Source of the DNA: a virus
Direction: 5' to 3' (one strand)
IMG/VR virus record: IMGVR_UViG_3300029777_000247
Coordinates: 1 to 64,000 of that record
DNA length: 64,000 nt
Each line of letters opens with the position of its first letter. Within the stretch, counting starts at the first letter, position 1. The notes below the pieces were generated by a model. The model searched no databases and was not told where the DNA came from. It worked only from the letters and a program-made list of their open reading frames with translations. Positions 23,901-24,975 of the stretch are shown in pieces. A program made the translations under genes and the position numbers.

Positions 23901-24975
23901 ACGCCCAGGGCCAACAATGACATCATTTTGCTTGCACCAGTTAATGTAATCAACCAGAATCAAAAAGTAGTCACAGAAGTCTTTCTTCTCAATGACAAAC
24001 AACTCGTCATCAACACGCTTACGATAGATCTTCTGCTTTTCTACATCAAACTTGTCAATACTGCGTTTCTTCCATCCATCTTTTACAAGGTCTTTTAAGT
24101 AAGCTGCTGAGTTGGAATACTGTGGAGGAATCTCGATTTTGGGAAGTTCAGGTTCGTGCCAAGGCATATCCACATAATCACATAGGTCAGCAATCTCATC
24201 GGTATTGTTGATACACCATTCTGCCGCATCATATCCAATCTGGCTATCAAGAACTTTATGTTGCTCTTCACGAGACATAAAGTAGCATCCTTCGTAAATT
24301 TCTGCGGCAGTTTCCGTATCATGTGCGATACGAAGGAAGTAGTCTTGATAATAAAGATCCTCTTTGGTAGCAGCATGAACATCGTTTGTGACAACTACTT
24401 TTGTGTGAGTATCGTTTGCCAACCGCATGATTTTCTGGTTGTATTTTGCTTGTTCACTGTTTGCATGAGCCTGAACCTCAAGATAATAGTGAGGAAATAA
24501 GCTCTTATATTCCTGAACCAACTTAATACAGGTGTTGTAATCATCCGTTTTGGATAGCCTACTTGCCAAACAAGCAGACAGGATAATCAAATTATTCGTA
24601 TCTTCCTTAGCGATATCCTCTTTTGTGATACGAGGACGGCTATAGAATCCATGAAGATGACCAAGTGTGGATAAACGATTAACTGCCTGACGGCCAGCTT
24701 CGTTTTTTGCAATAATGATCAAGTGCCAGTATTTGCTGTTCTTATCCTTGACTTCCCTGTCCTCGCACTCGTATGCCTCAATACCATAAAGAAGTTTTAC
24801 ACTAGGATACTTGTCTTTTAGTTCTGAGTAGTACGGCCAGCTTGTTACCTCACCATGTTCCGTAATGGCAATGGCTTTTAAACCAAGCTCTGATGCTCTT
24901 TTTAGATTTTCTTCAGGAGAAGAGAATCCGTCGAGTAAGCTAAAAGTATGAGTGCGTATGTAAACTGCTACTCAT
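20958..24975 (-). CDS. dnaE: DNA polymerase III alpha subunit (DnaE-type, PHP N-terminus), interrupted by an intein; needs a +1 frameshift near 24940-24945
   Basis: ATG at 24975 with AAAGGTGGTG RBS encodes MSSSLHTHSYF then UAG. The +1 frame continues SLLDGFSSPEENLKRASELGLKAIAITEHG (PHP domain), contiguous with the track ORF 20958..24722. Also has ELDFGRFLTIERKDLPDVDVDV and GYGFNK/SHSQAYA polymerase motifs. Confidence 0.8.
21975..22775 (-). mobile_element. HNH-endonuclease-containing intein (267 aa) inside dnaE
   Basis: Inserted between GYGFNK and SHSQAYA; begins CISGNTKL; block B ILTNHTHL; ends NHNFVVSTGIVTCN followed by Ser; internal HNH CEICGREYSEDARFEVHHKDFDHTHNVPDNYTWCCASCHKKLH. Confidence 0.75.

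Follow-up and report, generated by a model that had tools for sequence, protein, structure and literature searches.

Ribosomal frameshifting at an in-frame stop codon has been described in both bacterial and phage genes. In Escherichia coli prfB, the shift takes place at UAU CUU UGA C, with a Tyr codon in the exit (E) site of the ribosome. More generally, a shifty stop consists of a slow stop codon in the aminoacyl (A) site and a tRNA in the peptidyl (P) site that can re-pair in the overlapping frame (PMC3082878). Here we describe a candidate site of this class, UAC UUU UAG C, at the 5′ end of the dnaE gene, which encodes a replicative polymerase alpha subunit, in a gut-phage lineage represented by the IMG/VR record IMGVR_UViG_3300029777_000247. 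The analyzed stretch comprises positions 1–64,000 of that record and is referred to as the window; all coordinates are window positions, and dnaE is located on the minus strand. The dnaE frame is broken by a stop codon after 11 codons, the break is an inherited allele, and ribosomes probably bridge it by +1 slippage at UUU_UAG.

The dnaE site resembles that of prfB in several respects. In both genes, the in-frame stop comes early (codon 26 in prfB, codon 12 here) and follows a YUU codon whose tRNA can re-pair on UUU, the E-site codon specifies Tyr, and the functional protein is, or in dnaE would be, the frameshift product. The UUU_U form found in dnaE has a counterpart in a minority of prfB genes, in which tRNA-Phe reads a T-run (PMC12421855). 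The differences concern both the signals and their use. prfB contains an internal Shine-Dalgarno (SD)-like AGGGGG element 3 nt upstream of the slippery codon, whereas the dnaE site lacks one, and the stop codon of prfB is UGA (>99%) or UAA, read by release factor 2 (RF2), whereas the dnaE stop is UAG in 20 of 20 genomes and is read by release factor 1 (RF1). Unlike RF2, DnaE does not itself recognize the stop codon in its gene, and an autoregulatory loop is therefore absent. The prfB frameshift occurs in ∼64% of the surveyed bacterial genomes (PMC12421855), whereas the dnaE site is polymorphic within a single phage lineage. Because the internal SD and the autoregulation-linked RF2 stop both fail, the dnaE site should not be filed as prfB-type. 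A preliminary description of the window had likened the two sites; the likeness holds for the YUU_U that overlaps the stop and for the C that follows it, and breaks down at the missing internal SD and at the stop itself, which is UAG (RF1) and not UGA (RF2).

Other described sites share different parts of this arrangement. The tsh genes of Listeria phages PSA, A118, and A500, with CCC_UGA, and E. coli pheL belong to the same shifty-stop class and need no SD stimulator (PMC3082878; PMC5009743). The likeness to the Listeria phages extends to the type of virus, i.e. low-GC Firmicute phages, as the ribosome-binding sites of the window suggest a Firmicute host. However, in these genes tRNA-Pro slips on CCC_U before UGA at the 3′ end, which adds a C-terminal extension and gives two useful products, whereas the dnaE site lies at the 5′ end and its unshifted product is an 11-residue peptide of no evident use. 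The same slippery tetranucleotide and tRNA-Phe are found in E. coli argI (UUU_UAU) and Yersinia YopN-TyeA (PMC2790909; PMC5009743), and in argI the high-level +1 frameshifting also takes place close to the start, within the first few codons of the open reading frame (ORF) (PMC2790909). In both of these genes, a sense codon occupies the A site, and shifting is either an error or the source of a fusion by-product, whereas in dnaE the codon is a stop and the shift would be required. G-run mutants of herpesvirus thymidine kinase are similar in that low-level ribosomal frameshifting partly compensates for an indel in the gene, whose unshifted product is useless (PMC5009743), but they arise under drug selection in patients, whereas the dnaE allele is old, widespread, and recombining, and has no known selective agent. 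The dnaE site fits best in the compensatory or corrective class of Atkins et al. (PMC5009743). Recoding in a bacterial-type replisome gene is also known from a −1 frameshift (PMC3711429), which differs from the present case in the gene, the direction, the A_AAA_AAG site, the presence of stimulators, and the formation of two products in a set ratio.

The interrupted 5′ end of dnaE

The following elements, all on the minus strand, are found at the 5′ end of dnaE and in its body.

24983–24992, minus strand: SD sequence AAAGGTGGTG, separated by a 7-nt spacer from the dnaE ATG at 24975–24973 (read directly).
24972–24977, minus strand: tandem stops TGA TGA, which shut the +1 frame just ahead of the leader; the dnaE ATG overlaps the first of them (TGATG).
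24943–24975, minus strand: frame-0 leader of dnaE, 11 codons (MSSSLHTHSYF), with the HxH of PHP motif I.
24939–24948, minus strand: proposed shift site UAC UUU UAG C (read directly).
20958–24941, minus strand: +1-frame body of dnaE, 1,327 codons and a stop, from AGC (Ser12).

Frame 0 reads ATG AGT AGC AGT TTA CAT ACG CAC TCA TAC TTT TAG, i.e. the peptide MSSSLHTHSYF followed by a stop. With UUU in the P site, the parts of the shift site are the Tyr codon UAC (24948–24946) in the E site, the Phe codon UUU (24945–24943), UAG (24942–24940) in the A site, and C24939 as the next base. When T24942 is skipped, reading continues with AGC TTA CTC GAC GGA (SLLDGFSSPEENLKRASELGLKAIAITEHG), and the +1 frame stays open down to the stop at 20958, which gives a fused DnaE of 1,338 aa. 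The predicted tryptic peptide spanning the F11–S12 junction is MSSSLHTHSYFSLLDGFSSPEENLK or SSSLHTHSYFSLLDGFSSPEENLK. In the +1 frame, there is no ATG, GTG, or TTG upstream of the TTG at 24722, so 83 codons are without a start, and this start-less leader is the largest of any coding-strand ORF in the window.

Pfam profiles matched to the fused protein reveal PHP (residues 5–170), DNA_pol3_alpha (292–544), finger (564–709), HHH_6 (1051–1126), and OB (1257–1313) regions, so that the DnaE architecture (PHP, DNA_pol3_alpha, finger, HhH, OB) is complete. The best matches in the PDB are the DnaE structures 2HPI, 4JOM, and 5LEW. The N-terminus aligns without gaps to Thermus aquaticus (Taq) DnaE (2HPI) across F11|S12 (SLHTHSYFSLLDG against HLHQHTQFSLLDG), with the leader corresponding to H11-x-H13...F16 of the Taq protein, and the Pfam PHP match begins at residue 5, which is position 2 of the profile. 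H6 and H8 are encoded in frame 0, S12, D15, and all later PHP motifs in the +1 frame, and all PHP motifs are intact in the fused protein. The same N-terminus, MSSSLHTHSYF-S(L/I)LDG, is encoded by in-frame relatives. Judging from these alignments, both frames would be needed to form the N-terminus of DnaE. Among deposited phages, the best protein match is DnaE of Brevibacillus phage Sundance, with 37% identity, and a DNA-level search of deposited phage genomes gave no match; the phage therefore has no cultured close relative.

These results agree in every detail with what the preliminary description had read from the 5′ end of the gene: a start at ATG 24975 with a good SD 7 nt upstream (AAAGGTGGTG at 24992–24983), termination at the TAG at 24942–24940 after MSSSLHTHSYF, a +1 frame without a start before TTG 24722 (83 codons lacking ATG, GTG, or TTG), and the loss of the PHP metal-binding motifs from a protein initiated at that TTG, which would be devoid of H6, H8, D15, H40, and E65. 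Its proposal that the shift restores the conserved PHP N-terminus of DnaE is likewise upheld by the gap-free alignment to Taq DnaE and the Pfam PHP match.

Inheritance and recombination of the extra T

A protein-guided scan of IMG/VR yielded 65 related loci on phage contigs of ∼110–160 kb. Fifteen of them carry an identical TAC TTT TAG C/T, and the other 50 read straight through, with TAT TTT AGC, AAT TTT AGC, AAT TAC AGT, or TAT ATG TCA at the site. With the window included, the frameshifted form accounts for about a quarter of the sampled genomes (16/66), and its contigs (120–138 kb) are similar in size to those of in-frame relatives. A degenerate pattern specific for the interrupted form (H-x-H-S-x-TTT-T-AGY-L-L-D-G) retrieved only the same 15 contigs from the viral collection and none from the genomes of 185,579 species. 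When the junction alone was scanned for, regardless of the downstream sequence, the 15 viral contigs were recovered again, along with four metagenome contigs from other projects; TTTTAG is present in all 19 (25 other metagenome matches were chance matches). Together with the window, this makes 20 genomes from at least 10 datasets and different assembling groups, all with TTTT and UAG as the stop, followed by C in 18 of them and by U in two. Across the 18 genomes compared in full, which comprise 11 haplotypes over 549 nt, the 16 nt GCACTCATACTTTTAG do not vary, and the site is likewise present in the two shorter contigs. The window is at most 95.8% identical to any other frameshifted genome and is a separate genome. 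In an assembly collection, 52 index blocks list the 1,254-aa truncated product of the strain to which the window belongs; 24 contigs from them were read, and the site is present in at least 24 independently assembled runs of this strain (Logan assemblies). Three of them that were inspected (ERR13961256, SRR33789770, and ERR13962625) contain TTTTAG and have 0–2 mismatches to the window over 7.8 kb. No 1-nt revertant of the site was found among the contigs carrying the junction, and the viral collection contained no in-frame ancestor or version of the exact leader.

The preliminary description had considered the break real in the sequence and had listed a 1-nt homopolymer insertion error as one way in which it could have arisen. 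A spurious T introduced by sequencing or assembly would be in line with the position of the break in a T4 run, with the frequency of single-base homopolymer errors on some platforms, and with an additional 1-nt indel later in dnaE of one relative, L027. Against it, TTTTAG recurs in 20 separate genomes whose flanking sequences differ at many positions, and independent assemblies of the window strain, from at least 24 runs, show it as well; no other coding-strand gene of the window has a comparable start-less leader, and the window is not riddled with frame breaks. An error is thus vanishingly improbable. With 19 other contigs and the same-strain runs in agreement, the extra T is, with near certainty, a real inherited allele.

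Two further elements lie directly upstream.

25007–25252, minus strand: DUF7446 gene, 81 aa, upstream of dnaE.
24975–25010, minus strand: junction-specific putative mini-ORF of 11 codons (MNLNSMKGGVA), ATGA-coupled to the DUF7446 gene and TGATG-coupled to dnaE.

The mini-ORF belongs to ∼70 nt that are confined to the frameshifted allele. The gene order of the frameshifted type is Metallophos-DUF7446-dnaE, with a 107-aa gene replaced by a ∼35-nt remnant that forms the mini-ORF, and relatives display three other upstream architectures (Metallophos-dnaE, Metallophos-DUF7446-107aa-dnaE, and Metallophos-107aa-dnaE). The region 5′ of dnaE is mosaic, with the DUF7446 and 107-aa genes each present or absent and four junction types in total; the frameshifted allele always occurs with DUF7446 and always without the 107-aa gene. 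Every frameshifted genome retains the SD sequence AAAGGTGGTG, apart from a single A>G variant. A tree of the dnaE body (first 720 codons) intersperses frameshifted genomes with in-frame relatives, with pairwise synonymous divergence (dS) of up to 0.75, and frameshifted L035 is identical to in-frame L008 over codons 120–720. Only the short junction is specific to the frameshifted state. The break arose once, on a small 5′ cassette that recombines into diverged backgrounds; its junction is unique, and no other lineage with the interrupted form was found in the viral collection or among the genomes of 185,579 species. In this population, the site behaves as a segregating allele and not as a fixed feature of dnaE. 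Regarding the conservation of UUU-UAG in related phages, which the preliminary description had raised, the context is invariant within its own lineage, across 11 haplotypes at 3–6% linked diversity, but some 50 homologues are uninterrupted.

Nucleotide diversity among the 18 fully compared frameshifted genomes is 4.3% upstream, 3.0% in the leader and site, and 5.7% downstream, and six sites segregate in the ∼70 nt of junction-unique DNA. The frameshifted allele is old and appears to be viable. The phase of the single-nucleotide polymorphisms (SNPs) switches at the site, from mostly third positions of frame 0 before it to third positions of the +1 frame after it. The leader contains three SNPs: two are synonymous and one changes Thr to Met at the x of HxH, whereas in the +1 frame each of them would alter an amino acid. 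Relatives with only 76% identity encode the same leader peptide, although they spell 7–8 of its 11 codons differently. In codons 12–84, 37 synonymous and 6 nonsynonymous states were found. The gene is strongly constrained in both states: over the first 720 codons, the ratio of nonsynonymous to synonymous substitution rates (dN/dS) is ∼0.025 in pairs of frameshifted genomes and ∼0.034 in in-frame pairs; in subclades consisting of frameshifted genomes only, it is 0.014–0.066, a range that is confounded by recombination with in-frame alleles. Of the 43 variant states in codons 12–84, 38 are common to in-frame alleles, and recombination reaches up to the site. Purifying selection on dnaE while it is frameshifted is plausible.

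The pattern of variation also bears on whether DnaE could be made in the +1 frame alone, as a truncated or non-canonically initiated protein starting from ATA 24959, from TTG 24722, or by reinitiation after the UAG. Some DnaE PHP domains, such as that of E. coli DnaE, have lost catalytic residues, which makes such a protein conceivable, and gene callers annotate the 1,254-aa product that starts at TTG 24722. However, neither ATA nor TTG 24722 is preceded by an SD, and for 83 codons there is no ATG, GTG, or TTG. Initiation in the +1 frame would sacrifice H6 and H8, and from the TTG also D15, H40, and E65, though the PHP motifs are otherwise intact. Moreover, the frame-0 leader peptide is conserved despite its divergent codon spelling and codons 12–84 have a SNP pattern of the coding type. 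A truncated start is decidedly unlikely.

Another possibility is that the allele is defective, yields no full-length DnaE, and persists because co-infecting in-frame relatives complement it or recombination re-supplies intact bodies. This explanation draws on the coexistence of both alleles in one population and on recombination next to the site, as seen in the identity of L035 and L008 over codons 120–720 and in the 38 of 43 shared variants. It fits poorly with the share of the allele (16/66 sampled genomes, with 3–6% linked diversity), with its occurrence in a dominant full-length genome of ∼130 kb in many assembled samples, and with the fact that the window strain by itself is present in at least 24 runs. 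In five single metagenomes, a frameshifted contig was found without an in-frame relative, which is weak evidence given the filtering applied to IMG/VR. If the allele were null, it would also be expected to be purged or replaced, as the gene has a dN/dS of ∼0.03. We consider a null allele kept by helpers or recombination unlikely.

Proposed decoding at UUU_UAG

The reading that we favor, and regard as probable, is that dnaE is decoded by +1 ribosomal slippage at UUU_UAG. Ribosomes would start at ATG 24975, read 11 codons, and pause at UAG in the A site, a stop that only RF1 recognizes, with the P-site UUU occupied by peptidyl-tRNA-Phe. In a fraction of ribosomes, tRNA-Phe would move forward by one base and pair with the overlapping UUU (U UUU to UUU U), and Ser-tRNA would then read AGC, leading to full-length DnaE, while other ribosomes would terminate and release the 11-residue peptide. 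Such a shifty stop would lower the DnaE output per mRNA, and the output should vary inversely with RF1 activity.

Several properties of the site are consistent with slippage. The +1 codon in UUU_UAG is again UUU, as expected when the P-site tRNA re-pairs in the overlapping frame, UUU_U is the sole re-pairing sequence in the 29-nt frameshift box, and homology sets the switch between Phe11 and Ser12. UUU_U replaces CUU_U in a minority of prfB genes, and the P-site series of Curran had UAG as the A-site codon (PMC5009743; PMC12421855). A C after the stop is a weak-termination context that is conserved in prfB (PMC12421855); the dnaE stop is followed by C in 18 of 20 genomes, but this position is the wobble base of a Ser AGY codon, at which only C or U is possible. 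With respect to the effect of the E-site codon, UAC, which has one A:U and one G:C pair at positions 2–3, belongs to an intermediate class (PMC2377451).

Other observations weigh against slippage at this site or against its active upkeep. There is no SD-like stimulator 5′ of the site, where the 12 upstream nucleotides are ACGCACTCATAC and contain no G-rich run, and the local RNA fold is no better than that of shuffled sequence (z = −0.94 for the minimum free energy). UUU_U was reported to be much less efficient than CUU_U in the RF2-site context (PMC5009743), and bare shifty stops such as CCC_UGA usually reach at most about 2% (PMC3082878); given these low efficiencies, the yield could be low for an essential enzyme. 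The gene family does without the site, as ∼50 close relatives are in-frame and the two states recombine. Because of this recombination, the low dN/dS is not attributable to selection while frameshifted, and in codons 12–84 no more than five variants, three synonymous and two nonsynonymous, are confined to frameshifted genomes. Finally, only about six mutational events are visible in the junction, so the absence of revertants is weak evidence of active upkeep.

A 7-bp perfect pairing is possible between AGUAUGA (24992–24998, 5′ of the SD) and UCAUACU (24946–24952, ending at the shift site), which would enclose the SD and the AUG. Both arms are invariant in all frameshifted genomes, so no covariation signal is possible. 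RNA structure was rejected as a stimulator of the shift, as the fold is not significant and, when the shift takes place, the ribosome would already cover the 3′ arm. No helper tRNA was found among the eight tRNAs encoded by the phage, which are ordinary. Reassignment of TAG was also rejected: TAG does not occur between long open stretches, none of the eight tRNAs has a CUA anticodon, and if TAG were read as sense at the dnaE site, the frame would meet a TGA eight codons later.

The frame could in principle also be restored in the nucleic acid itself, by slippage of RNA polymerase on the T-run or by phase variation of the DNA. Homopolymers can slip, and the window contains a hypervariable (GA)n tract that breaks another gene. 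However, the run comprises only four T residues, whereas productive transcriptional slippage has been described for runs of ∼8 or more (PMC3711429), and the T4 length is invariant in 20 of 20 genomes and in the independent assemblies, unlike that of the (GA)5–13 tract. Restoration at the DNA or RNA level is very improbable.

The preliminary description had suggested, as its other alternative, a programmed +1 frameshift that regulates polymerase synthesis. Ribosomal slippage is the best remaining reading, but regulation is not borne out; ∼50 close relatives do without the site. The allele most likely originated by a one-base insertion, with or soon after the deletion of the upstream 107-aa gene, and the inserted base would have happened to land on a shift-prone sequence. 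It is more likely that the allele is tolerated, through compensatory frameshifting, than that it is a selected regulator. That it was selected as a regulator and is not just a tolerated indel is conceivable but doubtful. In one specific and rather unlikely form of this idea, UUU_UAG would be a selected sensor of RF1, and the shifted fraction, and with it the supply of replicase, would rise when host RF1 is low or termination is saturated.

Other TAG codons, further features of the locus, and implications

Among the 102 ORFs of at least 70 aa on the coding (minus) strand of the window, 63 end in TAA, 36 in TGA, and three in TAG. One of the three TAG-ending ORFs is spurious, as it overlaps tRNA genes, which leaves two genuine TAG stops, and the window was therefore checked for further YUU_UAG sites. 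CTT TAG at 18311 was rejected as a shift site, as it is intergenic and located beside a consensus promoter. This sigma-70-type promoter, on the minus strand, consists of TTGACA (18382–18377), a 17-nt spacer, and TATAAT (18359–18354) within the region 18205–18382, and it is followed by two copies of a ∼30-nt repeat (...TTAGCTATA...ACAGGATACG..AGGAGG) and then by a ligase-like ORF. CTT TAG C at 31617 was also rejected. At this position, one PAPS-reductase-like domain is split into two halves, ORFs 31612–32100 (162 aa) and 30873–31637 (254 aa), and the gene is broken by variation of a (GA)n repeat.

31682–31707, minus strand: (GA)13 tract within the gene 30873–32100, in its frameshift box.

In 22 genomes (21 relatives and the window), n ranges from 5 to 13, and the frame states 0, +1, and +2 are found in 8, 5, and 9 genomes, respectively, so the tract looks like a phase-variable contingency locus in a phage. 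On this survey, dnaE contains the only candidate ribosomal shift site in the window. In the tRNA cluster, a ninth, tRNA-like element (38268–38334, minus strand) is found with Rfam (30 bits) but not with ARAGORN; with an anticodon loop of 5 nt (CUCGG-AAACA-CCGAG) and an acceptor stem rich in G:U pairs, it is probably a degenerate tRNA.

The dnaE body of the window also contains an insertion.

21975–22775, minus strand: intein of 267 aa (Pfam Intein_splicing), DnaE residues 734–1000, CISG...VTCN|S, inserted at GFNK|SHS.

The intein carries an HNH-like motif at 22262–22134, is absent from most relatives, whose DnaE is 1,071 aa long, and is unrelated to the frameshift. In L009, L014, L037, and further relatives, an ORF-less insert of 227 nt (at about 5190–5416 in L009) is present at exactly the codon that holds the intein, and the called ORF ends at 742 aa. 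The insert could be a small self-splicing intron; in Rfam, no family matched it at the gathering threshold.

Other observations concern individual dnaE sequences and a stretch downstream of the site. In L064 (IMGVR_UViG_7000000549_000032), an in-frame relative, TGG is changed to TAG at the conserved Trp46 (dnaE codon 46), which could reflect either a natural amber mutation or a miscalled base in an older dataset. The frameshifted L027/L069 (IMGVR_UViG_3300003140_000016) has its second 1-nt indel late in the N-extein, before residue ∼715; in comparison with L003, the STKGGYG motif is displaced by 1 nt, and the protein tail is divergent, which may reflect an assembly error or real decay. The stretch TCTTCTCCTGAAGAAAATCTAAAAAGAGCATC (∼24890–24925, minus strand; dnaE codons 18–28) shows almost no synonymous variation among ∼40 haplotypes of the 96%-identity group, while its flanks vary. 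It contains a UCUUC/GAAGA hairpin and may mark either a conserved RNA element or a tract of recombination.

The interrupted gene is not recognized by automated annotation, which shortens its product to 1,254 aa without the metal-binding HxH, and a public protein collection holds this product for the window strain. In the literature searched, we found no earlier report of frameshifting in dnaE. If slippage takes place as proposed, dnaE of this phage would be the first gene for a replicative polymerase alpha subunit reported to depend on +1 frameshifting, again with respect to the literature searched, and UUU_UAG would be a natural shifty stop that works without an SD stimulator. The near-isogenic natural pairs, in which frameshifted and in-frame junctions are joined to the same dnaE body, make the cost or benefit of the shift directly measurable. 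Should the site act as an RF1 sensor, which we hold to be rather unlikely, it would couple phage DNA replication to the translational state of the host and would represent a trans-acting counterpart of prfB autoregulation, located on a mobile 5′ cassette that spreads by recombination.

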